From contig KZ539041.1 in the NCBI GenBank assembly GCA_000934665.2, positions 62,001 through 104,917 of the forward strand: DNA of 42,917 bases. The letters are read 5' to 3'. The DNA is from Catajapyx aquilonaris. Lineage: Eukaryota. Within the stretch, counting starts at the first letter, position 1, and every line of letters starts with the position of its first letter. Both the position numbers and the translations under genes were made by a program. The notes beneath the pieces are model-generated. The model worked only from the letters and a program-made list of their open reading frames with translations. It searched no databases and had not been told where the DNA came from. This document shows, one piece after another, positions 1 to 42,917 of this stretch.

Positions 1-3000
1 CGCAGATAATCGCCTCTAGGATTGGGATGATTTAGGGTCAACCTCCCCCTTGCCAACGTCCCTTTTCGCTTCAAAATTTTTATGGCTACAAAATGGCAAT
101 GACGTCATTGCCATATCTACCCATCGCTAATTTGGAACTTACCTTGTTAATGAAAGAAAAAAAAATCGGTTTTCCAAACTTGGCCGGTTTAATTGACCGG
201 CACTAGCGAATAGCGTGTTTTGACTTGCAAAAAGAACAGAGGATGCATTTCAGCGGCTTCTAAACGGCAAAACACAATTTGGAAAGGACTGGAATGTTCT
301 CCAACGGGTTTTGCAAGCACTTTGGAGAGGACTTACGCCCAACTGATAGACTACGTATCATTCGCAGGGATTCAGGTATTGCCTTGCAAAATAAGTTGTT
401 TTTTTCTACAATGAAAAGGGTGATGAACTTAGGATACCGGGTATTCTACAGAAAAAGGAGCTACTGGTATAAGGACACATTGCGGAAGAATAAGGCTGAG
501 GTATTAGGAAAAAATGGGCGGTCTGCCTCTATGGCGTGTTGAGCGACGTTCTCATCTGGTGGTGCCGCGTTTATTATTGTGCCCATAAAAGTGTTTCCCG
601 CAATATAAACTAACCACTTTAGGTCAAAGAGCACGCCCCTAAGGCCACATCACCTGCTGAGAATTTTATTAATGGAAATACGTACTAACAAATTGTACAT
701 AACTTTTGCAATGAAAGCAACTCCCAGTGTCCCCAGTCGCAAAATGTACGGTTTAATTTTTAAATAATATGGCCACGCCCAATTAAGATAATTCATCTCT
801 ACTGCATAGTATGATAATGAGTTCTATTTTTTCTGTCAAATAATTCCCTCGGAGCGATTATGTATTTCATTTTACGTACATAAAAAACGTTGTGCACTTC
901 AACAGCATGAAATATCGTCGCAGTGGAGAGATAAATGTTTCTCACATTACGTCAGCTAACCTCAAACATTTTAATTAAAGTATTTGTTTCGGGTGACTAG
1001 GAACGTTGTTGCAATAATAATTCATCATTACATTACACAGTTGTTGCCACGCTAATGAATACCAGTCTCGCATTACACAGTTGTTGTAATAATATTTTCC
1101 TAATTAGAAAAATATGCAGGACATGAGTCCGCTACACGCGAGGGGTTACATTAGCATACAAACAAGGACGGCAAAGCTCACTAAAAGTTGCACGACCCTG
1201 CTGAGGTCAAGAATAAATACCGTACTATAAAAAAGCGGGTAAACAACAACAACAACAAAACAATAACATCGGCGATAGCAGAGCGCACGTATCAAGATTG
1301 ACGGTCGAGGCTCCCTAATAAAAAGCTACTCACGATCCCAGATTATGCACAGCACTGTCCCAGCACCCAGGCCCCGTGATAAAGAAGGAGGTGTTGGCAG
1401 CCTCCGTAAATCTTCGGCAGGGGGGAATGGGGGGGAAAGGGTGGGGAGACCTGACAGGGGAGAAAGGGGGAAGAGGGGTGTTCTAGTGATTCTCAACTCC
1501 GATACTTTCCATCCAAGTCGCCATATAATAGATAGGAAGTAGACTAGTTTAGAGTGTGATTAATTTAGCATTGAATGTTTCAAAATTGGCGCCCAAAATA
1601 ACCCACAATGAATTGAAGAAGATGCCATTATCTTCACCTGTCCCCGTCTTGAACCGACTTGGACCACCATGTACATGCAGCAAAATATAAGCGTCAATAT
1701 TTAAACACAACTTGTATCATCTATAATAGTTATTATTAATGTAAAGTAGGATTGCGTGTGGAATCTGCGCATGACTTCCGCTTTTATATATATATATATA
1801 CCCACAGTGTGCAATATACACATTTTAACGCTGAAACACATATAAATTGTAGTAAATGCACTTAGCCAACTGCAGTTCTGGCAACCAGGAAAGAAAAATA
1901 ATCAGGAAAGACTGTTAATCAGCACACATTCCACTGAGTTAACAACTTTTGTCCAGGCAAAGTGTGTAACTAACGCTGGAAATTGCCAGTCCAAAGTAGG
2001 AAGGATCCGCCCTTCATAAAACAATCCAGCTATTTCATGTGCCAGTTAGAGTAGAATGGTGGAGTTCAGGTGGGGGTCAGGTGGACGGGGTCAGGTGTAG
2101 GGTATACAGGTGGGGTTGGGTAGTGGTAGAGTTACGTGAGAGCGGCCATCTGAGACCCGTCTTCAATTGTTTGCACGCCCGCCGGAAGATGTTTAAGACA
2201 TTTTTGCGAGCCTTGTTTCGATTCGCATCAGCAATTCCTCCCAGCATAAGCTCATGGTGATACCTCACTTTGAGGATGAAAAGAGATGGAGAAGGGGGAG
2301 GGGGGAATATATTATTCTAGGCCTAGTGTAGAGAAGGAAAAAAAACACTTAGTATTATCATTATCATTATCGTCACGAAAGTAGTGTCGGAGTCTAAAAT
2401 GGGAAGGGACAATGGTTGAATCTTCCTTTCCGAATTTGTTATGGTGTTTGTGTGGATGGTACCACTTTCTCTTGAGTGGTTGTCAGGATTATTGTCACCG
2501 TTTAACGTGTGATAGAGTAAGAATACGGCTTTTTATTTATTTTTGGCTTTTTCTGAAAGGTGCATTTTTCGATGGAGAATTGAGTTAGAACAGGTGTTAT
2601 AGGAAATGGAGGGTGTTTCAGTTTTAGAGGTTTTAAATATACACGTTGCAGCGCAGATGTAATTATTTTATTTTGAACAAAAATACGAGATAGAGAAAGT
2701 CATCATTTTGATTGGTGGAGTGTTATCTTCCGGTGATATGGAAATGATATCAGTGTAAAAGAGCGCGCAAACTGGCTATAATACCATCGTCCACTACTGG
2801 CGCAAATTTTTAAATAAGATTCACCAAACTGTGGACAAACAGAATTTGAATTCTCAGGTTGAAAATCCTGTCCCCTATTTCTCCAAAGCTCAGCGAATTA
2901 TAATGACTATAGGTGATTTATATCATCATCTAAAATTATTAAGTAGGATGTACACCAGTTACGATTGGCTTACTAATAAAATTACTCCTAACTGTATATA

Positions 3001-5950: not shown

Positions 5951-6176
5951 CAAGGTGTTCCAGATTCGTGGGTCACTTTTTCATAACTGATATCGACCGA
6001 TAGCAGTTTTTTGTAGCTTGTTGTGCTTCTAACTATGTGCTCCATTCCACTGGGGGTCGATTATAGCAGGTGCTATAGAATGGAGCACATGCTTAGGGGC
6101 ACAACAAGCTGCAAAAAATAACTGCTATCAGGGATATCAGTTATCAAAAAGTGACCCACGAATCTGGAACACCCTG
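5951..6176. mobile_element. Tc1/mariner-type MITE (foldback, ~100-bp imperfect TIRs)
   Basis: Left end CAAGGTGTTCCAGATTCGTGGGTCACTTTTT mirrors right end AAAAAGTGACCCACGAATCTGGAACACCCTG, which is followed by TA. CAGGGTG termini with TA are typical of Tc1/mariner. The left TA is not preserved. Confidence 0.85.
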
Positions 6177-9557: not shown

Positions 9558-9813
9558 TATAGTGGATTTGAGTAGATAAAGTTATCCTACTCTTTCCCTG
9601 TATCCCTTATGAGCCTAGGCCTAGCTAGGCCTAGGACATGCGCAATCATACCCGTTCTTCTGTGGTCGACCCAATCACATCCATATATGGTGGATTTGAG
9701 TAGATAAAGTTATCCTACGATTTCCCTGCATCCCTTATGATCCTAGGCCTAGCTAGGCCTAGGACTTGCGCAATCATACCCGTTCTTCTGTGGTCGACCC
9801 AATCACACCCATA
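9558..9813. repeat. 128-bp tandem duplication (2 copies), each with a CCTAGGCCTAGCTAGGCCTAGG palindrome
   Basis: Copies 9558-9685 and 9686-9813 differ at only a handful of positions. Palindromes lie at 9614-9635 and 9741-9764. Confidence 0.95.
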
Positions 9814-12259
9814 CCAGGCGAGTGGCGTCGTTGGGACAGTGGGGACGATAATCAGCCGGTCTAATCCTGGCAGCACACGAGTAGCTCCATAAAGCGCAGG
9901 AAATTGGAAAAGGGCAAGATGAGAGCGGTGCAGGCGGGGTCAGCTACCTGTACTATGATGGTAGGGGAGGATATTTCAGTGGGGTAAGGTGGGGGAAAAT
10001 TTACGGCGTCTCGCACGGCCTGTTACGACCTCACACTCCGCCCTTCTCTACACCCACCTTGTGCTCATCCTTGTCTCTCTCTAAGCACATTTGTTGGTGT
10101 ATGGCAACAGTGGGGGTCTACCTGCATGCCCATCTCTATTTTGATTATAGTCAGGCCCTCTCTCGTGTTGCATGCTCCCTCACAAACTCCAGGGAGGATT
10201 GCTCCTACCTAATGACACCTTTTTAGCATGGCGGTTGCGGTTTGTCGGTTTCGTGGCGTGACCTCCCCTTTAGCCCCCCCCNCCCCCCCTCCTCCTCCAC
10301 ATCATGATACTCCCATTTGTCCCTTTGCCATCCCAAGGGAGAGATCTGAATTGCAGCAACAGACGTTAGACTTGGAAAATAAAGCCATTAAAAAATTGTT
10401 TCAGATTGATGGGTGGTGCAGAAGAGCCGGATGGACAGCTGTCGGAGTGACGAAGATTTAGCTTCTCCTGAAGACTAACCGGCTGCTTTGAGTCGCCGGT
10501 CTTATAGCGGTAAGTTAAGTAAATGGACCTAATGTTGTGGGAAGATCCGACTGATCTGATGCTGTAAAAAAAATAGGAGGAAAAAACTACACCAGGTTGT
10601 TGCAATAAGGAAATCGACGTGACAATCCAACTGGCTGCACCCCCTTTTTTGGTGATATGAAATCACCAGTCCGTGCATTCGAAATCCTCCATTTCCTTTC
10701 GAATGTATGTCCGTCTGCTGACTTCATGGACTCTAATCTTTATTGTGGCTCACAAAGCGGTGGGCATTCATTTCAAACGGGCATTTATAGCTGGGGCTAC
10801 TCACTAAGCCATATTTTATTATTAGCGTTATCCGCAGCACCGGATTTACAGTGCCACCCAATGAGAACTTTTAAACACTTGGCACATCATATCGAGCCAT
10901 TTGCACCAGCCTGGTGGGTTATCCACAATATATGATAATCCGAGCTATCTCTAAAAAAAAAAGGTCAATGGGGTGGACCTTTCTTCATTTCGCATTGTAG
11001 CACACTCATTTATAGCTTGGTTAGCGTAAGATCGTGTATGGGAAAGAGAGGGTCAGTTTAGGGTGTTGAAATACCTCATTTCCTGGTCTCTAATATTAGA
11101 CAAAAAAAAATTAGATCAATAGCTATCAATCACATGTTTCGCCATATTTGTGCCAACCTTTTTGCTCACGAGGGTACATGCCCTGGACACAAGAAAAATG
11201 TGGCTGTGGCACCCCCTTATTGATCTGATATGCAACATTTTATAGAACTTGATCAAATGGGTGGGGTCAAGCTCCGACATGTAGGCTCGTAAATCTAAGA
11301 AAAACTATTTAAGTCGGATTCTTTCTGTGATTGGTGACGTAACACCAGGCCTCTCAAGGATTGGCCAGGGTCACAACTGTGCAGCTGTGCTTTGAAGAGG
11401 TCATTCGATCTCTATTTTCTCACTTATTGGGCCCGGACCCAAGTTGGCTAATCATACAATGACAATTATTAGGTCTATTTAGAGACTTAGGCCTAGTTAG
11501 TGTGATTTGACTCAGTTTGAAAGACCACCCCCGCACCTCCCCCATACCTCCCCATCTCCCATGATAATAATGGGGGTCTCAGGTTCTTCCTACACGCAAA
11601 TCCAGAGGGATTAGAGCAATGGCCTGCTTAAGGCCCATTAGGAGAGGTCCCCGTGTGAGGTGTCCACTGCGGCTAATTTAAGGCTCCGTCGCGTGCCGGA
11701 CAACCTAAAATACTCTTTAAAAAAATAGGGGGAAAAAATGCATCACGAGTTGAATTTTTAGATCTTGCCATTCTTCTTATCCGTTCTTTATTTTTGGGGA
11801 GTTTGTGCCAAAAATGAAGGAGAGATTAGTTATTTTTTGTGTATTTTTAGATTCGTGTGAAACTCTAGGGGTGAAGGACACCAGGTGTAATTACTCTCTT
11901 TCCAGGTTTTTAGAAGGGAAGAAAGGGGGGTAAAATTTGCGTGAAAATTTTGATTCGGATTCTCACATGAAAACTACGCTATGGTAGAATTTACTGTAAT
12001 TTTGAGAGCAAGGAACTTGACACTAATGAAGATTATTTTCGTCTTTCAAGGTGTGTGGAACAGTATCATTTTCTGCTGTTAAGAGTTTCACGTCGGTTTT
12101 TTTTGGAGGCTGTGGATAAAATATAAATTGTACCACCTGTATGTTAGGGATATGTTGTATAGAAAAATATTGAGTTGAATTCCTGAAGTATTTTGAGTCT
12201 GAATTTTTGAAAAGAAATGTCTGGAATTTTGGCTGCAGTTGAAATTCCCAGCTAAATTA

Positions 12260-23746: not shown

Positions 23747-23938
23747 AGGCTCATTCACACAGGCCGTTGACGGTTTTGGTTTTAGTTTTGGTTTTGGTTT
23801 TGGACCAATCAGAACGGGCCCTCACATAAACAACGCGTCATAGTTACCGTGAGGGCCCGCTCTGATTGGTCCAAAACCAAAACCAAAACTAAAACCAAAA
23901 CCGTCGACGGCCTNGAGAGAGAGAGAGAGAGAGAGCCT
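23747..23938. mobile_element. Foldback MITE, probably PIF/Harbinger-like, with internal (GGTTTT)n/(AAAACC)n arms
   Basis: Near-perfect inverted repeat across 23761-23913. Outer left end is TAA|AGGCTCATTCACAC; outer right end is ...GAGCCT, but with N+(GA)n in place of the expected GTGTGAAT. Confidence 0.75.
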
Positions 23939-30697: not shown

Positions 30698-31174
30698 CGA
30701 CGCTGCCCAATTAAGTCAGACCAGTCCAGGTGGAAGAAAATGGCTTCCGTATCACCATCCTCCGGATAAATGGAATCCGGTCAGACGCAGGCTGATCCGG
30801 ACAGTATATGGGCACGTTTTGAAGGCAAATTTATATGTTTGATTTGAAGGGGGTGAACCTGCTACACGGTGGGGGTTATTAATGGGTCGGAAACAATACG
30901 CGACTGGCAACCCAGGAGGGTAATCAACTTTCAAACTTTCCATTAGGGGGCTGTCAATCCCATCTCGCGGCCGCCGATGAAAAACTGCACGTCCCGCCAA
31001 CTTTGCCGGCGTGCCCCGGGCAAGGATGCGCCTGAAGGCGGCAGCCAGATGAGTAGTGTCCTCCCCCCCACCCCTACTTCTCTTCCAAGCTATGCCCCGG
31101 GGCAAGATGCTCATTTACCTACTCGAAAAGATTGCTCAAGGTTAAGGTCCTGTCAGAGCCGGATTCAGCCATTT

Positions 31175-31365
31175 TGTACTTATACACGTTACCTTGTGTA
31201 CTGTACATGTTACCATGTGTACTGTATACACGTTACCTTCTATACTGTACATGTTACCTTATATACTGTACACGTTACCTTCTATACTGTACATGTTACC
31301 TTCTATACTGTACATGTCACCTTGTATACTGTACATGTCACCTTGTATACTGTACATGTCACCTT
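31175..31365. repeat. 21-bp minisatellite, ~9 copies (TATACTGTACAYGTYACCTTN)
   Basis: Tandem units are directly visible. The 21-bp period explains the YTVHVT(F/L) and YCTC repeats in the overlapping ORFs. Confidence 0.95.
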
Positions 31366-32845
31366 AACCTTCTGTGTTCATGGCGTATTCTACGTTGCTG
31401 GGTTATTCATGAAATAAGCCTTCAGGTTCATGCCGCGTTTTTCGCGGATCAAACCGGTTTTCGGCAATGCTTCCTGCCACGTGCTGGTAGTTTTTCTACA
31501 CTGCAACATTCTATATCACGAGCACAGTCACGAGCAGAGTCCGAACCAGTTCAGCATCAAACATTCAAACCGATGATGTCTCTGCTGTATGAGCAGCTAC
31601 ATAAAAAATCTCATTTTGCTCTAGACTGTACATCTCACATGGCCTGTGCATTCGTGCACCTTTTTTCCTTATCCCTTACACTTATATCTCACGTCCCAAC
31701 TTTAAAGCCATAATTATGCATAGCGATAACCCCAGCCCCACCGTCCCCATACCTATATATATAACACACTCATTCCGTAATCATGGCACAACCGATTGTT
31801 TTGTTTCCTGCCAGACCAACCGTCATTAAGTCCGACAAGAAGAAAAGCAGTTGTTGACACGCTCGGCACTTTGGGGGCGCCAAATCTTGTCACTGCATCT
31901 CTTTGCCACCGATCTCATTTTTCCCTCTTCAGCTGCTGTCACCCCCCACCTCATGGCGTTACTTTTGAATAGAATGACAAAAAAAAACACTAACAAAGCA
32001 GTTAATGAAGCTAAGAAACTGGGTGTGTTCAGAAACGCTAACTGTTAAAAAAATTGTGGAATCACAATGCACCCATCTTTAATAACAAAAAAAAAACAGA
32101 CTTAATTCATAGAGTTGGGTTTCTCGCACAATTAGTTTGGCGAGAAGGGTTTTTCTCGCTTCCCCCCCCCCCCNCCCCCCATTTCTCCTTCCAGCTCATC
32201 GTTTCCTATGAGCGAATCTGACAGTTCCAGCGTAATTTATTTCCGAGACGCCTAATATTCTGTCATTATGAAGGATCCTGTCTCTGGCTTTTTGTTCTGT
32301 TCTGGGGCGGAAATGATTTACAGGAGGCGAAGGTGGAACACCTGTTGAATTGGATTTGGCAGGGAGTTTTCTCGCTGATGCCCCAACTCCTTACATACAG
32401 AAGGGGGGAGGAAAGTTCGAAAACAAACGGGTGGGAAGGAGGAGAAAAAACAACAACAAAAAATATATCCTGAATGGGAAAAAGGTGGGGCGGTTCTGGA
32501 AATGAGGAGTAAGTCATTCGAAAATGATGTGGCGTAATTCCTGCCGTTCCGAACGGTTTGAAACTATGCTTGAAGCTAGAAAGGAATTGTTGGACTGACG
32601 TGTTTTCCCCTTTTCCTAAAAAAAAACAACAAGAAAATAACCCCCCCAAAAAACCGCGAAGGCGCCAAGAGGATTATTTTGGAGAGAATTCTTGCGATTT
32701 ATTTGCGGTCGGAATTTATGCGGTAATAAAATGTCAAATTTTTGCTTTGTACGGTGTTTCCAAGCCGCAAAGATCAAATTAAGGCTTGCTAGTTCCGGTA
32801 CTTATGTGCAAATATGTAAGTACTATGGTATGCCATATTTACATA

Positions 32846-33180
32846 CAGGGTGTTTCAACTTTTTTGTCCGAACAGTTATCGGAAAATTGCACGTAGCTGC
32901 TACTTTGTAAGCAGTGACTTGCAAACGGTGATTTTTTCGGAGGAACGGGGAATATTCCCTGCGGATCGTATAGGTTGAAGTGCTGGCATAGTGCTGCCCG
33001 CTGAAAATTGAGGGTCAAGTCTGGAAAAAAGAGGGTCACACATGCCATGGGAGGTGTGAACCTCCTTTTCCCCATTTCCCATTCCTCCTACAAATCACCG
33101 GTTGCAAGTCACTGTTTACAAAGTAGCAGCTACGTGCAATTTTCCGATAACTGTTCGGACAAAAAAGTTGAAACACCCTG
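32846..33180. mobile_element. Tc1/mariner-type MITE with long near-perfect TIRs and TA target-site duplication
   Basis: TA|CAGGGTGTTTCAACTTTTTTGTCCGAACAGTTATCGGAAAATTGCACGTAGCTGCTACTTTGTAA... is mirrored by ...TTACAAAGTAGCAGCTACGTGCAATTTTCCGATAACTGTTCGGACAAAAAAGTTGAAACACCCTG|TA. Arms are about 90-110 bp. Confidence 0.93.
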
Positions 33181-35674
33181 TATATGAGGGGTTTGAAGTT
33201 TCTATACCATTTTTACGTTTTGGTCAGATATTCAGGAGAACCTGAAGTCATAGGAAACTAATAATAATAATTAGTGAGGTACTGAATTTTCTGATATAGA
33301 TAAATTATTTATCTGTCAGAAAAAATTCCGTGTCGCATTATATCGATCAAAATTTTGCTGTCCTTCACTGTATGACCTCATTATTCGTCTTTCTATTTAC
33401 AGTCCAGTTTGCACTAATACCAGCCCCATAATTAGAGCTAGTTACAAAAAAATTATTATTGAGAACCCATGCGATGCAAAATAGCGCATTGAGTTGGAGG
33501 TCATTGCAACACGCCCAGCTAAATTAATACACTTGTGCATGAACCGTATTTAGTAATTAATCTGCAATTAACCAGCTCGACATACCCCACCCAATCCGGA
33601 ACCTAGCTTTATAACATATGACATTTAGCAATATTTTGGATTCTGACTGCCCCGCTGGGCCTACACCATTTTTACCTGCCTCTAAAAAAAATTAATTAGT
33701 GTCAAAGGTGACCAGATGGAATCTCCTAAATCCTCCTCACAAATGACCCGTACTCACTGTCTTCGTTTTTTATCCTTCCCGCGGTCCTTGTGTCGGCAGC
33801 AAATATTAATGCGGATCCCATCGCAATAAATTAACAGCTGCAGGGGAGAGGAAGTCCCCAAAGGAGGGGGGGCCCAAGATATCAAAATAAGTCAAGCCAC
33901 GAGCAGGTGGGCTTAAGAATAAGGGACAACCAAGACAATGCCAACTGTCTTTGTCCTTTAAAAAAAATTATAAATATAAAAAAATAAAAAATAAAGTTTT
34001 TATGGGTGTGGAATGGTAGCCCTCTTATTACAGATTGGAATCTAAGCGTGTAATTAGTCGCCGGAAGCCAAGTGGTTGCAGAGTCGGCCGACAAAAATCG
34101 CGTCGTAAATCCGACGTGATTTAGTGGAGCGGGGTTGAGTCTCGCGTAAATCAGTCACATGTCGGCAGGACAGCGTAATTTTCGGTGTCGCTCACAGTTT
34201 GCTTTACATTGGATTGGATGGATGGGGGGTACAGGAGTTGGTTTCTCGTGGTCGTAAAATTTTGGGTGAGACGTTTTCCCACCTTTAGTAATGTGTAGGG
34301 TAGTTTGAAAGTGGTCACCAGGACGCAATTACTGATCAAATGAAAGAAAGGTGTGTGAAAGTGCTACCTGAAATTTGCCTTCAAGGCTGGGTTGCTAACT
34401 CGATAACATTTTATTTAAAAAAAAACGTTCAAAACTGGGACGGTGGAGTTTCATATACACTACAGTGTTGCCCTGGAGGTTAAGCGTTAATGAACAACAA
34501 AGTAGAAAATACAATTATGTTGGCAGTTGAAAAATTGGAGGGTGTGAAAACACAATATGTGGTTGTGTGCATATATTATGATGGGCCATAAATTATTCCA
34601 GGGAAAAATATGAACACAAAATAGGTTAATAAGATTAGTGCCTCGAACAATTAATGACAAAAAATATATTGAATAGATTCCCGCTATGCTATTATGTATT
34701 TTAGCACAGGTATTATACAGCACTATATATACTACTTCAATATATTCATCGGTTTTTACAGTGCGTTCGTTGGGGCCTTCGACATTTTGCTCACGATTGT
34801 ATACGTAATGTTTTAACTGACCACTCTAAATTATTTTTGAGCGGTTTCGGCTCATTCTTCACTTGAAATTGCAATCCATAGAATTTTTTACATGGCATGG
34901 ACTGAAAAATTATTGTAAAAAATCAGTATCAGTGAGCGAGGAATTTCTTCTCCAAAATTCTTCCAAAATTCCGATTTTAAGTGTAGAGCTAGTTAAAACT
35001 CCAGTTAAAATCCACTCAAAATTATGTCGAATGAGTAATATCCACTTGAAAATCTGAACATATGCCATACCATCAAATTGTAAAAACCTCATATCATACC
35101 ATGCATATTTGCATACATCTCACACCATCCTTTTACTGACTGCTACACATTCCATGTAAGTTATACCCACCTCCCATTATTTCTCCCAAGAAAAAAAAAT
35201 AGGCTCGAAGAAAAGACCCTTTGGTACGCTCTTATAAAAAAAAATGGTGGAAAAAAATGCACCTTTCGTGATCGTGGGGATTATGTTGCTAGAGGGTTTA
35301 AAAAAAAGAAGAGAAGAGGTCCCACCCAAGCCTCAATCCAACTCTGGGATTCCTTACAACCACTGATGCCAATGTTAACCCCTTTGAAGCCCACGCATAC
35401 TCCAAAAAACACCTACATCCTGTTGTATGGGTTACTATTTTTACACCACCATTTTTATCGTTACAGATGGACCTATTGACATCTCGCTATCGCACGAACT
35501 GGTAAGTTGCATTTACGACCCAGTCAATTTTAACCTCTTAAAAAAAAAATAGTGACCATACCTCCCCCCTGATTTCTGCACGCCAACAATAATTTGAGCC
35601 AGGTTTTATGTCGTAAAAGAACATTTCCTGTTCTTTTAGGCTGGACCATATGGCTATACTCCCCCCCCCCCCCC

Positions 35675-36363: not shown

Positions 36364-36790
36364 AAATGCTGATGGATTAATCACTCCATTAAATTTGAAG
36401 AAATTATTATGTACTAGTAACTACTACATAATAATTTCTTCAAATTTAGTGGAGTGATTAATCCATCAGCATTTATTAGTAACTGATACATAATTATATA
36501 TAACCATTGTATAACTGTTATATATAATAGTTATGTAGTAGTTACTATAGTACATAATTTCTTCACATTTAGTGGAGTGATTAATCCATCTGCTATACAT
36601 AACAATTATATATATATATATATAACCATCGTATAGCTTATATATAATAGTTATGTAGTAGTTACTAGTACATAATTTCTTCAAATTTAACTATCCATAA
36701 TTTGTTACAATATTGAAAATGTTTATGTAGAATAATTTAAAATAGTTATAAATAACCATTGTATAACTGCTATATATAACTATTTTAAAC
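36364..36790. repeat. AT-rich compound inverted and tandem duplication
   Basis: A ~49-bp-arm hairpin at 36364-36474 is followed by ~122-bp-period direct copies (TAACCAT.GTATA...ATGTAGTAGTTACTA..GTACATAATTTCTTCA at ~36501 and ~36623, partial at ~36753). Confidence 0.9.
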
Positions 36791-37782
36791 TCATACGTAG
36801 AAATTATGAATATATTGCAATAAATTTTTGGACAATTTTTGCCCCCCCCACCCCCACGACTATGACGTATATGGTAGATGTAGATAAGGGCCTGGCACCT
36901 TCATGTATCCATTCCGCAGCCGTGCTGCACAGGTGTATGAAGCGTGGTTATATGAAGTTTCTTATCGGTCGGGCGTGAGTAATCAATCAGCATCAGCAGC
37001 CCGCCAATTTTTCAAACCTGGCTGACCCTTCTTTTTGTACATCCTGTAGTCTGCGGACTATTATTACGCGGCCGATTGAAGGACAGGGTATAAATCGGGT
37101 TAATTCTAATCATTAAGAGTGCAAAAAAAAATACAATAAATTCTTTATGGTCTTTACGGTCTGGAACAGTATAGTTTTTTAAAAAAAATTGGGCCATAAA
37201 TTTGTTAAATTTGTTAAGATTTACAGCCAGTTGAATACGTTTGAAGTAGGGTGCACCACAGTTAATTGATACTGCGACACGAAAAAGCTTTGGAGCTGTT
37301 ATCGCCTTTGCTATACTTTTGATAGTAGCAAACACTTTTAAAATGTCCCGAGGTTGAAACCTAAGAGTGTAGCGTTTGGATTGAAAGGGGTAGACCCTGT
37401 TATAGGTCCTCCCTTTTTCAGNCCCCCCCCCCACACCCGAAAAAAAAGTTGCCAAGTTTAGTAATTATTTCTCTGGAGTCGTCTAATTACGGGGTGCATT
37501 GTAGCGTGTTGTTTTCCCGAAAAAGCCCCTTTTGTGTGGAGTCTCATTAGTTGATTTAGGCTTCACCCCAACCCCACCCCAGGTTTTTCCCCCACGCACT
37601 TATCGTCAGCAAAAACCCCTTTTTACCCTCCCTACGGCAAGGACCTAAAGTTATAACGGCCTTAAGTCTTGACATTCCGTATAGTAATTTTCGCCCTTTC
37701 ACCTTTGCTTACCGTTCATATACTTAGTATCAACCTAACTTTCCTTCCCGGCGGATATACCCCCCCCCNCCCCCCCCCCTAT

Positions 37783-37840
37783 CATTCAGCGGATACATGC
37801 ATATGGTCAGCGGATACAGGCGTATCTTTCAGCAGATACA
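37783..37840. repeat. Short ~22-bp tandem repeat (TCAGCGGATACA core, 3 copies)
   Basis: TTCAGCGGATACA, GTCAGCGGATACA and TTCAGCAGATACA at ~22-bp spacing. Confidence 0.7.
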
Positions 37841-38149
37841 ACCCCTGGGAAAGTAGGTAAAAAAGTGCGACGTCTCCCGATATGAAAGCATAGCCGTTTC
37901 AACTACTGGTCAGGCACGTGGATACCCCCCTGGTTTTTAGTTAGGCCCGGTATCAAGCTAGCATTATACCCAACCTGACAACGATCCGCCACCGCTTCTA
38001 TTATACATATGAAAAAAAATACTCCGGTGTCGCCAGAGTGGTTCAAAAATCCCCCTTCCCCTCCCTGGGTTTGTTACCCCCTATCTACTCCCCCCCCCCC
38101 CTCTTTTTTACCTCCCCCCCTCCCCATGTAAAAAAAATGGTGGGGTAAA

Positions 38150-38360
38150 AGTGGGCGTGTCCTGTCTCCTTATTGGTCGGGTTAGAGGGGGGTAAGTGGG
38201 CGTGACTAGATTGGATGCGCGGGTTGGTTGGGTGGGAATGGGAGGAGCGAATAGGAGGCAGCCATGGCGGGTTGGGGGTGAGGTGTGGTTCAGGTCTCTC
38301 GCGCTAGCCGGCAGCACGCGATGGCAGTCTCGAGGCGGCAGCAGCGCCGAGCGGAGGTGC
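38150..38360 (+). promoter_or_regulatory. Candidate Pol II promoter (GC boxes, inverted CCAAT boxes, Inr, DPE-like), probably for pri-miR-276; predicted TSS ~38326
   Basis: GTGGGCGTG at 38151 and 38196, each followed by ATTGG (38172, 38210). Inr-like GCAGTC with A+1=38326, G at +24 (38349), and GGAGGT at +28..+33 (one mismatch from DPE GGACGT). The region is locally GC/CpG-rich. Confidence 0.55.
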
Positions 38361-38682
38361 TCTCGCGGTGCTCTGGTGGTGCGTACGTACTTTTGGTGGT
38401 ACTTTGGTGCTGGTGCTTGGCGAACATACTTGTTCCTATCCACTACCCCCCTCTACCTACCCTTACAGTATATACACCCCCCAGCTGCCAGTCTGTGGTT
38501 AGTGTACCAGCAACGCGGTCGAGTGACATCTGTTCGTAGGTTGGGCGCGAATTGTGACGTGAGCGGTGAGTCAACGCGATTGCATACCATTTGTTGGTAA
38601 AGCGGTTTTTTTGACGCTAGTTTTTACGTTTGTGATGCGGGACTCGTAACAACCCCTACTCTACGACATACAACCAGAACAT

Positions 38683-38753
38683 GCTCTCATAGCTCAGTTG
38701 GAAGAGCAACAGCTTATAGCTGGAGGTCCCAGGTTCGATTCCTGGTGAGGGCA
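38683..38753 (+). tRNA. tRNA-like gene/element with contracted anticodon arm (nominal loop CT-TAT-AG); not a canonical tRNA
   Basis: Acceptor stem GCTCTCA/TGAGGGC, D arm GCTC-AGTTGGAA-GAGC, variable loop AGGTC, T arm CCAGG-TTCGATT-CCTGG, discriminator A. A box (TAGCTCAGTTGG) and B box (GGTTCGATTCC) are intact, with TTTT at 38766-38769. Only 16 nt lie between the D stem and the variable loop instead of the usual 18. Confidence 0.85.
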
Positions 38754-41489
38754 CAGCTGGTTTAATTTTCAGGTACCTTCTATAAGCGAGGTCCGCATCA
38801 CAAAAGTTTTTTGATGTTTAAAAAAAAAAACTGGTATGCAAGTGCGTCACTCTACGCTTTTATTTCGGGAGTTGCTGACTCAGACGGGAGTGCTTTTTTT
38901 TGTGTGTGGAAAAGGGCGGGTTCTGTGCGTAACGCTTTTTTTATATATATAACTTCGGGTAAGTCATGACATTAAGATGACATCAAAGCCGTGCTTGCTG
39001 CTTGTCACGCTCGGTGCATTTTTCCCCTCCAATGTTATATTCACGGCCAGATCATATGCATGTTTCTAAGGGGGTGACAAAAAAATACTAGGAACCCTCA
39101 GGGTCGTTCCGCGCCCGGAATAAACCTGCCCTGAATAATAATATTTTCAGAACCAGTAACAAAAAATCGGTTGCATGTCCATCAATGTAAACTTGGTTAG
39201 AAACGTACAGAACAGTTCAGTCGGTCTTCCTCCCTCCCCCCCTCCAAAATTTTTTGATGTGATTTGAAAAATCACGTCTTCGGCAATCAGCTATAGGGGG
39301 AGGAGGAAGACCCCCCCCCCCCNCCCCCCCCCCCCAATTCGCTTTACGAAATATCTAATGTAGTTATATCTATATAGACTGCGCGTTTCCTTCTTTACCA
39401 GTAACTGGAATTATGGGTGGAAAATTGGGTTGCTAGAGTCGGGATGCGTGAAACCACGAAAGAGTATAAATAGGAAGGCGATTGAAATAGTGCGTGTGTT
39501 GTGTTTTTTTTTCTGAAGAAATGTTTGCCAGCTTGCTTTCGGAAGGGAGTGATGATGCCACCTGCTGCTCTCCGGAAGGGTCCATCTTAGGGGGAAAAAA
39601 TAGCCGTCAGTTGGAAGGCAGTTAGTAGTATCCCCTAGTCACGACTTGGGAGGAAACTATAACCAGTAGCAGGAAAAGCCATAAAAAAATTTGAGAACTT
39701 CGCAAAAATAAGCGCCACGTGTGGTATGTTTGACAAAAATGTTCTCCTACTGAGTAGTTTTTTTTTTAAGTTAAAAATGTGGCCTCCAGGGTTCACTCCA
39801 CGTGAGGTACCATCTGCGTGACTACATTTTTCGTCCCTACCAACATCTTCAAGTTACTTTTTTGTTGTTTTTAGTGGGGGAGGCCCTCCCAAGGCGGAAT
39901 ATTTTTTTGTGCTCATATTGCGCTTGATTGCTGTTAAGGCAAGTGGACTCCTTAGGCTCATTTCCCTCTACTTGAAAGAATCCCTAAGTCGATGACCTCA
40001 TCTAGAAAAAAAAGGCGGGGTTTAAAAAAAAAATTGTTTTAAATATTATAATTACCGCGTTTTTATATTGGGTGTCGAGACCCCTTAATGATGACCGACA
40101 TTTTTGCAGCCTAGGCAATATGCGCACTGTTGAGAAATTTTTGCGAACATGTGCGAAAAGGGTGGTTCGAAACAGCGTGGGTCGTAAAAGATGTTTGTAA
40201 GTTGTCAAGGGCAAGTTCTATCTGCGGTTAGATAGTTTTCGCAAACTGTGGTTTTGTGCTTCCCGGATTTTACGGGTTTCCGCTCGGTTTTTTTTTTGTG
40301 GTCTTCCCCAGTCTACTAAAAACGTAAGGGCTGAGCTATAAATTGAATGTTGTGTAGTTAAACAAGTAATTTTAACAAAATCTTGCAGCTGTCCTCTAGG
40401 GCGTGTGGGAGTGGGGTCAACACATGTCATATGACAAAAAAAGGGACCTTTTGCCCTGTAGATTCCAAACGGTGATATTGTTGAGTGACAATAATGGTCA
40501 AAATAGTGAATGAGTCAGACGCTGTACGTGGCACTATTTTTGCAATTTCAACAATGACGTAATCCTGCCTGGCATCCACCCGTCCAACCTCCTATGCCTG
40601 CCAGCTCCATTTTTGCTGACCGTTTTGCCACTTTGCTTATCTGCACGGAAATGATCTCACCAACCTGAAACCCCAGACCGAACAAAACGTTAAGGTCAGC
40701 TACACGAGCACATTATCACCCACATTTAGGTTTTATGTTTGCAGAACAGGAGTCGGCCTGCTGTGTGCAATGACGTCAGCAAGTTGACCCGCGGTGTAAC
40801 ATACACATACAAAAAAAAAGCAAAACAAAAGGTCAGACGTCCGCTTCCAACAGACTGTAAGTCTATTATCATATTTAATTACAGTTTTTTTTTTTAAATC
40901 CGCATGTGGGCCGCAATTTGCATGGCGAAGAATATTCTCAATGCGACATTCGCATAGCGTTCGTTAAAATCGGTGCGAAGTTTCGCGATAACTGTTAACA
41001 GCAATCGGGTATGCTGTGCGAAACTCGCAATGTGAATAGTGATGAATATCACATTGCGAAATGCATGATTGTTTTGTAAAAGTAAGATGGTAATGTTGCC
41101 GTTCGATTTTTATAGGCCACGTCAAATGTGCCGTAACCAGTAATCTGTTCTTTTCCCACCTCAACGACATTTATCTCGCAAGACTTTCTTTATTAGAGCA
41201 CTGACCCGATTCTAAATTGCTGACCCCTGACCTGTCCAGAAAGTAAATTGTCCAACAGCTAATGACAGTGTCGAAGGTTAGTCAAGGCTAGCTCTTTTTT
41301 TGTCTCTATTCCCACTCGCCCTCCCCCCCACCTTTAATATCGCCATAGTCTTCCATCCACCACATTTTTAAACAAATTGTCCACTGGCGTCGTCATGAGC
41401 GCCATCTTTGTAATTGCATAAAAAAATGGCGGCTCGGAAGAAGAAGGAAGAAAAAGACCGCAGGGTTGGCGAGGTGGGAAAGCGGCACG

Positions 41490-41570
41490 TGGCATGAGTC
41501 GAGAGCGAGGTATAGAGTTCCTACGTAACTTATAAGGTAGGAACTTCATACCGTGCTCTTGGTCATGCCA
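41490..41570 (+). ncRNA. mir-276: microRNA miR-276 precursor hairpin (5p 41504-41525, 3p 41538-41559)
   Basis: 41538-41559 TAGGAACTTCATACCGTGCTCT matches the conserved miR-276(a)-3p as I recall it; 41504-41525 AGCGAGGTATAGAGTTCCTACG matches the conserved star arm. The arms pair, and a lower stem TGGCATGA/TCATGCCA extends the hairpin. Basal UG at -14 (41490-41491) and CNNC (CAGC, 41576-41579) at +17 are both present. Confidence 0.98.
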
Positions 41571-42917
41571 GACTACAGCATTCAGGGTGCCAACCTGCGC
41601 GAAATGGCTGCTTTGTATATACAAAATGGCGGCTCATTTTTAGGCGCGAATAGTGGCCAATTTTTGAATTATAATCGGATAAATTTTTTTGTGGTAGGCA
41701 CAGGTTTGTATTTCACAGTTCCTCATGCTTAGCAGAGACCAACTTCATGGCTCACAGCCCTGAAATCTTTTTTCCATTAACGAATCTCGCAAAAAGTCAC
41801 CCCTCTCGAAGGGAATCAATAGCAAATGTCGCTTTTTTTTGTTTAGAAAAAAATATATAAGAATTTAAGAGTCTGGCAACTGTGGGTGCCAGACATGTTT
41901 GGCGACATTAGACAGAGTATACATTGTGCGGATGTGGCAGGACTTGTGGTTCACACTTGAATTGTTAATACGAAAGGCGGATGGAAGCCGTAAGAAACAG
42001 GATGTGAGTCGCGCAGCCATTTTTCTCGGAAGGTTGAGGGAAACACTTCTAGAAGTCTTATCAGCGACCTTTGGTATGGCAAAAAAAAGGTGGTTAGGAG
42101 GGGAGTAGGAGGTGGGCAACCCTTTGGCCTTTTGGAGAAACAACTTAATTTTGCATGAATGCGACGCCGAAAGGAAACGAGGGAAAAAGTCAGTGCTGGT
42201 CTTTTTTTTATTAAATGAGTTATGTTGATGACTAACACGAGTGTCTTTTCAGATGGAGAAGTCCTTTTTTTCTTCCCGCAGCAGCCCGCATTTCATGGAC
42301 AATGTTCAATTGTTAGTAATGTAAAAAAGAATTCGTATATTGTTCAGATGTAATAAACATGTCATTGAAGCTTGAGTTTGTTGCTTTACTGTTGTGTATA
42401 CCTTTACGTCGTCACTGGAGCATACTGTTTTCAGAGAGGATCATTCAACCTGGTGAGCCGTTCACATCAAAAAATGGATTAATCTGATTATTATAACCAG
42501 CAGGCGTGTAAAAGACAGATATTCGGATTAATCAGTGTTGGTGGGAAAGTCTAGTAATTATCAGACTGAGCTGGGGTCTTATCATCACTTGGGACGAGCG
42601 GATTGTAGACTATATAAAAAAAAAGGTAAGACCTACCTGTATACCCACGTGCACACCACACCAGTAATAAATGCTTATCTTAGAATTAGAGCATCATACT
42701 GACGAACGAGACCTGTAATTGAACATTGGTGCATGTGGTTACAAGTTAATATTAGAGTCGAAATTACAGGTAGGGTGATATTCCACTTGTCATTTGAGTC
42801 CGTATACAAACCTAGGTTGGGCCTAAAAATTGCATGATTTTCCCGCCTTTTATTCAGACCGGAGGGAGAAATCAGTGGACACGCTGTCCAATTCTCAGAA
42901 ACGGTGATGAGTATAAT

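Follow-up and report, generated by a model that had tools for sequence, protein, structure and literature searches.

In the TMERs of gammaherpesviruses, a tRNA-like unit is fused to pre-miRNA hairpins in a single Pol III transcript, and tRNA genes (tDNAs) can also act as insulators. Processing of long non-coding RNAs by way of tRNA mimics is, to our knowledge and within a non-exhaustive literature search, described for vertebrate MALAT1 and NEAT1, some plants and the herpesvirus TMERs, and we know of no arthropod miRNA locus where it occurs. For mascRNA and menRNA, the excerpted description in PMC11693755 gives smaller D regions and missing linkers, and the part of PMC8457004 that deals with mascRNA processing reports that extension of the acceptor stem by leader-trailer pairing is important. 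The GUT15 tRNA-like molecule of Arabidopsis is, in the portion of PMC6152437 devoted to it, a Pol II-derived and intron-encoded product for which autonomous Pol III transcription is not possible.

The window considered here, a stretch of 42,917 nucleotides from Catajapyx aquilonaris (contig KZ539041.1), contains a tRNA-type cloverleaf upstream of mir-276, at the centre of an imperfect palindrome. We conclude with moderate confidence that this is a tRNA-gene-derived unit of the Pol III type, probably a non-decoding copy or pseudogene, lying inside a fold-back that was generated locally or is a relic.

The cloverleaf and its Pol III-type signals

The main features of the unit and its neighbour are as follows.

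38683..38753, + strand: tRNA-type cloverleaf, 71 nt (ARAGORN, Rfam tRNA match, minimum free energy fold)
38690..38701, + strand: A-box-like internal Pol III promoter element, TAGCTCAGTTGG (sequence reading)
38732..38742, + strand: B-box-like internal Pol III promoter element, GGTTCGATTCC (sequence reading)
38766..38769, + strand: TTTT, candidate Pol III terminator, 13 nt past the discriminator base and before the right inner arm (sequence reading)
41488..41572, + strand: mir-276 hairpin, which neighbours the tRNA-like unit and lies 2,735 nt further downstream (Rfam RF00637, 71.9 bits)

The original prediction had described a 71-nt cloverleaf with intact acceptor, D and T arms, and this description is upheld by three approaches. 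ARAGORN calls a tRNA-Ile (tat, anticodon UAU) at 38683-38754(+), and Rfam model RF00005 (tRNA) matches 38683-38753 with 55.3 bits (E 2.3e-09), exceeding the gathering score of 29 bits. When folded alone, the 71-mer adopts the cloverleaf as its minimum free energy structure (-27.9 kcal/mol), with an anticodon arm of 5 bp and a 3-nt loop. The other helices are an acceptor stem of 7 bp, of which one is a U-G pair, a D arm of 4 bp and a T arm of 5 bp.

The anticodon arm, CAGCT-TAT-AGCTG, has a loop of 5 nt, or of 3 nt if the U-A pair is closed, against the tRNA standard of 7. The claim that this arm is 2 nt short agrees with the RF00005 alignment, in which the loop has 3 letters versus 5 in the model and the first anticodon-stem pair is flagged as non-standard. 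A canonical 7-nt loop on a 5-bp anticodon stem is not formed, and ARAGORN keeps a 7-nt loop only by using an anticodon stem of four positions, one of which is A-G. By enumeration, a single contiguous 2-nt deletion in a standard 7-nt loop with U33 and purine 37 kept cannot yield the short loop, and the history of the loop must therefore have involved more than one step. Because the loop is 2 nt too short, the cloverleaf should be unable to decode, and we infer that decoding was lost by this copy.

The A and B boxes that had been predicted were located by sequence reading at 38690-38701 and 38732-38742, and were named according to what we take to be the A-box and B-box consensus. By this reading, the locus has the layout of a canonical tRNA gene, in which both promoter boxes lie within the gene and a T run follows it. 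A further run, TTTTTT at 38807-38812, lies directly behind the right inner arm of the palindrome. The sequence thereby suggests that the unit may be used by Pol III; given the T runs at 38766-38769 and 38807-38812, the polymerase would stop far short of mir-276. Several more T runs of 4-11 nt occur between the tRNA-like unit and mir-276, and the position of the cloverleaf 2.7 kb upstream of the hairpin is taken as neighbourhood only. As to other genes, the window looks like a gene desert: its 10 longest frames from stop to stop contain no Pfam family.

The palindrome and copies of its parts

The elements that flank the cloverleaf are listed below, strand being given only for the helix halves detected in folds.

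38562..38677: full extent of the left side of the palindrome (aligned collinearly with 38757-38858 in reverse complement)
38757..38858: full extent of the right side of the palindrome (collinear alignment with 38562-38677)
38574..38595: left outer arm, with perfect 10-bp core 38580-38589 (inverted repeat I1, 22 nt, 82%)
38826..38847: right outer arm, with perfect 10-bp core 38832-38841 (inverted repeat I1, 22 nt, 82%)
38626..38646: left inner arm (inverted repeat I2, 21 nt, 86%)
38787..38807: right inner arm (inverted repeat I2, 21 nt, 86%)
38672..38677, + strand: leader half of a 6-bp leader-trailer helix, AACCAG (folds)
38757..38762, + strand: matching trailer half of this helix, CTGGTT (folds)

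Two nested stems had been proposed around the cloverleaf, and both were recovered (inner 21 nt, 86%; outer 22 nt, 82%); the letters given for their 18-nt inner and 10-nt outer cores agree with the sequence. The leader-trailer helix and the collinear palindrome extending over the whole flanks are additions to that description. In the alignment of 38562-38677 with the reverse complement of 38757-38858, which contains indels, 75 of 96 columns (78%) are Watson-Crick pairs, and its score of 49 compares with 19.5 +/- 3.5 for shuffled sequences (maximum 35, n=500). The arms, of about 115 nt each, end 3-5 nt short of the tRNA ends, and the axis of the palindrome, 38717, is the middle of the anticodon loop. 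Collinear flanks, indels and 78% pairing are what a decaying inverted duplication would look like. Whereas the arms have decayed to this extent, every helix of the tRNA body is still paired; the body may be under constraint, may have been renewed by gene conversion or may be younger.

Folding of the 285-nt stretch places the cloverleaf at the apex, with an energy of -96.3 kcal/mol (z -5.32; none of 200 shuffles as good). The argument that G-U wobbles point to folding of a + strand RNA is not borne out by these calculations, since the minus strand folds to -92.8 kcal/mol (z -5.59), and the 21 mismatched palindrome columns include 3 G-U wobbles for the + strand against 1 for the - strand. The equal folding of both strands and this distribution of wobbles therefore suggest that the palindrome exists at the level of DNA, nothing in them pointing to an RNA of the + strand, and the arms of about 115 nt do not look like a selected RNA hairpin. 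The arm-to-arm score is reached at 23 of 1561 sampled window positions, clustered at three other loci, and perfect or near-perfect inverted repeats of 40-92 nt are present at 5951-6176, 23761-23913, 32843-33183 and 36364-36474; the window has at least three fold-back loci that are stronger than the palindrome around the cloverleaf.

Copies were sought at a likeness of at least 80% in contigs of the same organism from samples X1 and X2, which are possible sources of the window DNA. In both samples, 38679-38757 is matched by contigs that depart from the window exactly at the tRNA ends. Among the pieces listed, at least six of this kind occur in X1 and at least six in X2, with 2-9 other letters and 1-3 gaps, the placement of indels in these body-matching contigs being too ambiguous to point to one parent tRNA family or anticodon. 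Loose contig ends pile up at 38681-38685 before the cloverleaf and at 38753-38760 behind it, and the flanks beyond them have a consensus agreement of just 0.46-0.68. The summed word depth, which is not a copy number, amounts to 773 (X1) and 910 (X2) in bin 38642-38755, compared with 14-26 in most X1 and X2 bins, including all three bins to the left. The combination of body-matching contigs that have unlike flanks with a high word depth implies that the body belongs to the tRNA gene population of the genome. A pattern with the same acceptor stem and the same T arm gave no matches in the viral_contigs and genome_contigs collections, where arthropod DNA is not expected.

The arms behave differently from the body. 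The stretch 38300-38641 is covered only by the contig of the locus itself, and a second copy of the arms was found neither in the contigs of the organism at a likeness of at least 80%, nor within the window, nor in 23 other arthropod loci. The arms are also not covered in a related organism, B, and in sample X5, but with sequence runs of just 27 and 32 million letters this carries no weight. With a body shared with tRNA genes, unrelated flanks and single-copy arms, the locus is therefore neither a SINE nor an active MITE, which confirms the earlier view that no such element sharing its flanks is present, since at the 80% threshold each arm occurs once and contigs leave at 38753-38760. A shared body or tail of SINE type behind the tRNA head is absent, the contigs that match the head having unlike flanks, and no target-site duplication is visible at 38561/38859. 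Terminal inverted repeats, as used to define MITEs and fold-back elements, are present.

Origin of the locus

We propose that an ordinary nuclear tRNA gene was copied and that the short anticodon loop abolished decoding, while the requirements for type-2 Pol III transcription were kept in the form of both promoter boxes, the short helix between leader and trailer, and TTTT 13 nt downstream. The copy is most likely a pseudogene of a tRNA, or else a tRNA-like Pol III unit that does not decode. If a Pol III transcript is made, it would begin some 10 nt before the cloverleaf and end at the TTTT at 38766-38769, and thus include the leader-trailer helix and exclude the inner and outer arms. Two origins of the palindrome can be envisaged. 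The inverted repeat of the acceptor stem may have been extended outward by strand-switch (quasi-palindrome) copying during replication, or the palindrome may be a relic of a fold-back or MITE-like element, several of which occur in the window. It would be a remarkable coincidence if a tRNA had inserted by chance into the very middle of an older fold-back, and a neutral pseudogene of the same age as the palindrome would not be expected to have a fully paired body; both points, like the history of more than one step that the short loop requires, count against the explanation as a degenerate tRNA gene copy.

The locus could instead be a functional tDNA that acts through chromatin, by recruiting TFIIIC or Pol III, as a boundary or promoter-proximal element that separates the GC-rich promoter-like region from the regulatory region of mir-276, the RNA being irrelevant. 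A Pol III/TFIIIC-type tDNA beside a promoter-like region had been the second option of the original prediction, and it fits the boxes, the TTTT and the GC-box/CCAAT-like pairs that were recognized by motif reading at 38149-38214, some 470-530 nt upstream of the cloverleaf. Perfect A and B boxes next to a broken decoding part, and a body that is preserved relative to its flanks, also agree with such a role. We nevertheless judge it unlikely, as the unit is a lone one rather than part of a tRNA cluster and the palindromic flanks are left unexplained.

A quite unlikely explanation is that pri-miR-276, or else a non-coding RNA associated with the promoter, is transcribed by Pol II through the fold-back and cut at the apical cloverleaf by RNase P and RNase Z, as in MALAT1/mascRNA, which would sever or shape the transcript upstream of miR-276 and release a 71-nt tRNA-like RNA. 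A tRNA-mimic module acting on pri-miR-276 had been the main inference of the original prediction, and the analysis yielded no support for it. The acceptor stem and T arm, which are read by these enzymes, are intact, and the body is better kept than the arms. The compact anticodon loop resembles that of mascRNA and menRNA as excerpted in PMC11693755, and a leader-trailer helix lengthens the acceptor stem, a feature that promotes mascRNA processing according to the relevant part of PMC8457004. The GC-box/CCAAT-like pairs, together with GGTGAGT at 38565-38571, a possible splice donor by motif reading, might represent the promoter and first donor site of a Pol II gene just upstream. However, a score of 55 bits is that of a near-standard tRNA, unlike diverged mimics, and the hairpin shows no strand bias. 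An A-rich tract directly 5' of the cloverleaf is missing: 38647-38682 is rich in A and C without an A tract, and an A11 tract at 38820-38830 lies downstream. A scan of 37800-41700 against Rfam (E<=1, + strand), which presumably holds a mascRNA-type model, returned tRNA and mir-276 only and no mascRNA-type match.

Comparison with other mir-276 loci lends no support to such processing. Seven distant arthropod loci include 2.8 kb or more of sequence upstream of mir-276, and none of them carries a tRNA-like element there, the hairpin alone being alignable. The only upstream block seen to be conserved in related organism B is 40568-41037; situated behind the tRNA and ahead of the hairpin, it contains promoter-like motifs and resembles a proximal promoter region, so that the pri-miRNA may begin downstream of the tRNA. 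A more specific proposal is that a Pol II transcript begins in the GC-box/CCAAT region around 38150-38300, extends to miR-276 and has the fold-back as an RNase P/Z cleavage signal near its 5' end, perhaps in its first intron and directly behind the GGTGAGT at 38565-38571, with the leader/trailer duplex remaining after cleavage; this is very improbable.

Two further similarities among these loci were considered and rejected. The left outer arm (38570-38587) resembles a site that follows mir-276 at a distance of about 70 nt in L006, L018 and L021, three loci that look like one species (17/18, E 0.043); nothing similar lies behind the window's own hairpin, and the match was judged to be chance. 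Rfam tRNA matches of 82 nt and 29-32 bits occur downstream of mir-276 at 176-257 (-) in L016, where further sequence is found behind the tRNA-like head, and at 2641-2722 (+) in L020, where the sequence stops 3 nt past the match; they were read as SINE heads that are unrelated to the cloverleaf.

An assembly slip, by which the halves of a normal tRNA gene with a 7-nt loop were misjoined via k-mers shared with paralogues, is likewise given little credence. The long contigs of X1 and X2 end at 38710 and resume at 38724, on either side of the loop, and 38711-38723 is bridged without differences by none of the pieces listed for these samples. The occurrence of N within homopolymer runs of the window, e.g. 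at 37769 and 39323, indicates that base calling is imperfect. The loop itself, on the other hand, has no homopolymer longer than 2 nt, and breaks of graph contigs at this position are to be expected because paralogues share the flanking words. Moreover, 21 of 71 X1 records are at least 99% alike, some of which may bridge the loop.

An old MITE-like mobile fold-back with a tRNA-derived core, whose other copies have decayed below detection, would agree with the terminal inverted arms around a short core and with the several MITE-like fold-backs in the window, but is hardly probable, in view of arms that are matched by no other contig of the organism at 80% or more and have no second copy in the window, no target-site duplication at 38561/38859, and a tRNA core that is far better kept than the arms.

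Comparison with known systems

The likeliest meaning of the locus is that it represents one more degenerate tRNA gene copy, of which the palindrome centred on the anticodon is the sole unusual trait; it may illustrate how a larger DNA palindrome is seeded by the inverted repeat of a tRNA itself. If a Pol II precursor of miR-276 were indeed cut at the cloverleaf, the importance would be much greater, as mascRNA-type processing would then have a parallel in arthropods, linked to a miRNA gene.

With MITEs and fold-back elements, several of which lie in the window, the locus shares inverted arms about a short core, and it differs from them in its single-copy arms (at 80% likeness or more), its tRNA core and the lack of a target-site duplication. 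As in the TMERs, a tRNA-like unit lies upstream of a miRNA hairpin on the same strand, but here the hairpin is 2,735 nt away; because of this distance and the several T runs that intervene, one Pol III transcript cannot hold both the cloverleaf and mir-276. Like GUT15 as treated in that portion of PMC6152437, the unit could be intronic to a non-coding RNA made by Pol II, but unlike GUT15 it has textbook A and B boxes and a candidate terminator.

The mascRNA and menRNA units, from the 3' ends of MALAT1 and of the long isoform of NEAT1, have in common with the cloverleaf an intact acceptor stem and T arm and a compact anticodon loop, to the extent that the excerpted accounts describe them. Compared with those accounts, the D arm and junction linkers found here are those of a standard tRNA, and the locus has no upstream A-rich tract, triple-helix element or Rfam match of that type. 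From nuclear tRNA genes it differs in the anticodon loop of 5 nt (or 3 nt) instead of 7 and in the palindrome of about 115 nt per arm centred on the anticodon, whereas the 55.3-bit cloverleaf, the A and B boxes, the short T run, the leader-trailer pairing and a body shared with many tRNA genes are the same as in nuclear tRNA genes and pseudogenes.

Structure of the cloverleaf and its palindromic surroundings

We are inclined to regard the tRNA-like element upstream of mir-276 as a unit of the Pol III type that was derived from a tRNA gene and has lost its decoding function. The features on which the discussion is based are the following.

38683-38753 (+): cloverleaf of 71 nt, the single tRNA-type element within the window
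38690-38701: A-box match TAGCTCAGTTGG
38732-38742: B-box match GGTTCGATTCC
38766-38769: TTTT run downstream of the cloverleaf
38672-38677 with 38757-38762: third (leader-trailer) helix, 6 bp, AACCAG with CTGGTT
38626-38646 with 38787-38807: inner stem, 86% over 21 nt
38574-38595 with 38826-38847: outer stem, 82% over 22 nt
41488-41572 (+): mir-276 hairpin, Rfam 71.9 bits

The boxes, which we assigned by what we take to be their consensus sequences, and the TTTT run were found by reading the sequence. ARAGORN annotates the cloverleaf as tRNA-Ile with anticodon tat, and the Rfam tRNA model matches it with 55.3 bits (gathering score 29), leaving three letters in the anticodon loop versus five in the model and flagging the first anticodon-stem pair, an A opposite G, as non-standard. 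Folded alone, the 71-mer yields a cloverleaf (-27.9 kcal/mol) with an acceptor stem of 7 bp including one U-G pair, a D stem of 4 bp, a T stem of 5 bp, and, in the anticodon arm, 5 bp around a loop of 3 nt. Thus, the cloverleaf with an anticodon arm 2 nt short of standard that was originally predicted is indeed present, as assembled. The hairpin lies 2,735 nt downstream on the same strand.

The nested stems of the original prediction were also recovered, both as inverted-repeat arms and in the fold of the 285-nt stretch (-96.3 kcal/mol, z -5.32, equalled by 0 of 200 shuffles), which has the cloverleaf at its apex. In the folds, the leader-trailer helix is separated from the acceptor stem, which it prolongs, by an internal loop of 5 nt and 3 nt. 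The left flank (38562-38677) and the reverse-complemented right flank (38757-38858) are collinear over their whole length, with 75 of 96 columns Watson-Crick and several indels, and the palindrome is symmetrical about 38717, which is the central base of the anticodon loop. The proposal that G-U wobbles point to folding of the + strand RNA was not confirmed, as the 21 mismatched columns comprise three that are G-U on the + strand, one on the - strand and 17 that are neither, which is too few to decide; a fold just as good is obtained from the minus strand (-92.8 kcal/mol, z -5.59). The palindrome alignment score of 49 is far above that of shuffled sequence (19.5 +/- 3.5, maximum 35 in 500 shuffles), yet such palindromes are not rare in this genome: when the window was scored every 25 nt, 23 of 1561 positions reached at least 49, clustering at about 6.0-6.4, 32.9-33.0 and 36.4-36.65 kb.

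Other repeats were noted as well. Inverted repeats whose arms of 40-92 nt are nearly perfect (93-98% complementarity) occur at 5951-6176, 23761-23913, 32843-33183 and 36364-36690; they resemble MITE or fold-back elements, and some are nested or arranged in tandem. Part of the left outer arm is duplicated 61 nt further upstream as a 28-nt direct repeat (71%; 38511-38538 and 38572-38599), giving the right arm alternative registers in which to pair (inverted repeat I9, 38518-38527 / 38846-38855). Furthermore, there is an array of about ten 21-nt tandem units (31162-31373) and a 128-nt tandem duplication (95%; 9558-9813). Pfam matched none of the window's ten longest open frames.

Candidate promoter regions upstream of mir-276

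The cloverleaf is preceded, at a distance of about 470-530 nt, by two tandem units of a GC-box-like GTGGGCGTG followed by ATTGG (38149-38176 and 38194-38214), which are succeeded by a G+C-rich stretch. A splice-donor-like GGTGAGT (38565-38571) is located at the outer margin of the palindrome's left arm. Together these may mark the promoter and first exon of a Pol II transcript, close upstream of the tRNA-like unit. Contigs from a thin run of the related organism B (X6) cover 40568-40790, 40918-41037 and 41421-41640 with few differences, have 140 nt replaced between the first and second of these blocks, and leave the arms uncovered. The retained sequence includes a CRE-like TGACGTCA (40771-40778) and an octamer-like ATTTGCAT (40916-40923), and TGACGTAA (40555-40562) just precedes it; mir-276 may have its proximal regulatory region in these blocks. 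All of these motifs were named against what we assume to be the consensus sequences. The motifs would be compatible with Pol II initiation near 38.2-38.3 kb, placing the fold-back inside a transcript, as well as with a proximal mir-276 promoter near 40.6-41.2 kb, leaving it outside. A tDNA acting via TFIIIC or chromatin beside a promoter, for which tDNA insulators form the background, is unlikely.

The hairpin itself is bracketed by two + strand copies of the 12-mer AAATGGCGGCTC (41424-41435 and 41624-41635), 200 nt apart, versus 0.16 matches expected; one of 100 shuffles reached two. The core of the 12-mer presumably resembles a YY1/Pho site, and a related GCGCCATCTTTG occurs at about 41400-41411.

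Relatives of the element and of its locus

Contigs of four public runs, three from the same organism (X1 and X2, from which the window itself may derive, and, from another sample, X5) and X6, were matched to 38300-41700 at 80% likeness. Long X1 and X2 contigs end at 38710 and resume at 38724, and among the X1 and X2 matches listed no difference-free piece crosses the anticodon loop, so that the 2-nt loop shortfall is known from the assembly only. We consider it quite unlikely that the gene is a normal tRNA gene on which the assembly slipped. Elsewhere, long C or G homopolymer runs broken by a single N (10261-10286, 37769, 39323 and others) reflect assembly uncertainty; X1 and X2 have 10-12 nt fewer in the run near 39312-39325.

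The arms drew cover from the locus's own contig alone, and word depth was 14.1 (X1) and 18.7 (X2) in each of three bins from 38300 to 38641. In the bin holding the cloverleaf, summed word depth was 773 and 910, respectively, sums that are not copy numbers. Among the pieces listed, six X1, six X2, two X5 and two X6 contigs match 38679-38757 alone, differing from it by 2-9 letters and 1-5 gaps; the points at which they leave the window cluster at 38681-38685 and 38753-38760, where flank consensus agreement is poor (0.46-0.68). Judged by the coordinates of the pieces, the lengths of these relatives range from 3 nt below to 5 nt above that of the unit in the window, and differences above a 10% share are limited to 38714-38721, where 1-3 nt are inserted. 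They may well be the ordinary tRNA gene population cross-matching the cloverleaf, from which the window's copy would depart in the anticodon loop. Since no shared body follows the cloverleaf, the element is not a SINE, and since the arms are unshared, it is not an active MITE, in agreement with the original prediction; a degraded tRNA-carrying MITE is very improbable.

An exact-match scan of metagenome contigs with mature miR-276 gave 23 loci, which must belong to distant arthropods since the window aligns to them in the hairpin alone. ARAGORN found no tRNA in the 23. The Rfam gathering-level scan covered 20 (L002, L015 and L017, each with at most 222 nt upstream, were left out); all 20 have the hairpin, and two have a tRNA match.

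L016, 176-257 (-): tRNA match, 82 nt, 29-32 bits
L020, 2641-2722 (+): tRNA match, 82 nt, 29-32 bits

Both lie 1.3-1.5 kb downstream of mir-276 on insect-like metagenome contigs. We read them as SINE heads and not as counterparts of the window's element. Further sequence follows the head in L016, and the L020 contig ends 3 nt past the match, which leaves no body for comparison. The seven loci that include 2,805 nt or more of sequence before the hairpin (L003, L004, L006, L012, L013, L014, L022) gave no upstream tRNA-like or mascRNA-like match at E<=1, which suggests that mir-276 is not anciently associated with an upstream tRNA in arthropods. None of the titles in a non-exhaustive survey of the literature on mir-276 and on mascRNA points to a tRNA-like unit at an arthropod mir-276 locus.

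Origin of the element and comparison with mascRNA

In a tRNA-derived Pol III-type unit, a precursor made from the internal promoter would begin about 10 nt before the cloverleaf and extend as far as the TTTT at 38766-38769, holding the 6-bp leader-trailer helix and excluding both arms. A Pol III transcript reaching mir-276, in the manner of the gammaherpesvirus TMERs, is ruled out by the T runs at 38766-38769 and 38807-38812. A link of the element to miR-276 is as yet unsupported. The palindrome would be a product formed at the DNA level. Quasi-palindrome strand switching, with the acceptor-stem inverted repeat as hinge, could have copied one flank inverted to the other side, which would account for the axis on the anticodon; the palindrome may also stem from an old fold-back element. 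Against a plain neutral pseudogene count the intact body, while the arms decayed to 78% pairing, the exact centring of the palindrome, and the short loop, which in an enumeration from the standard anticodon loop cannot be reached by one contiguous 2-nt deletion that keeps U33 and purine 37. The element is best seen as a degenerate tRNA gene copy in an unusual palindromic setting.

We consider it unlikely that the element serves a Pol II transcript as an RNase P/Z module of the mascRNA kind. Published accounts of mascRNA describe intact acceptor and T arms with a compact anticodon loop (PMC11693755) and an extended acceptor stem (PMC8457004), and the window's element shares these traits. However, inspection of the sequence upstream of the cloverleaf revealed no A-rich tract or triple-helix element, Rfam at E<=1 gave tRNA and mir-276 alone on the + strand, and, unlike mascRNA, the element has an entirely standard D arm and junction.
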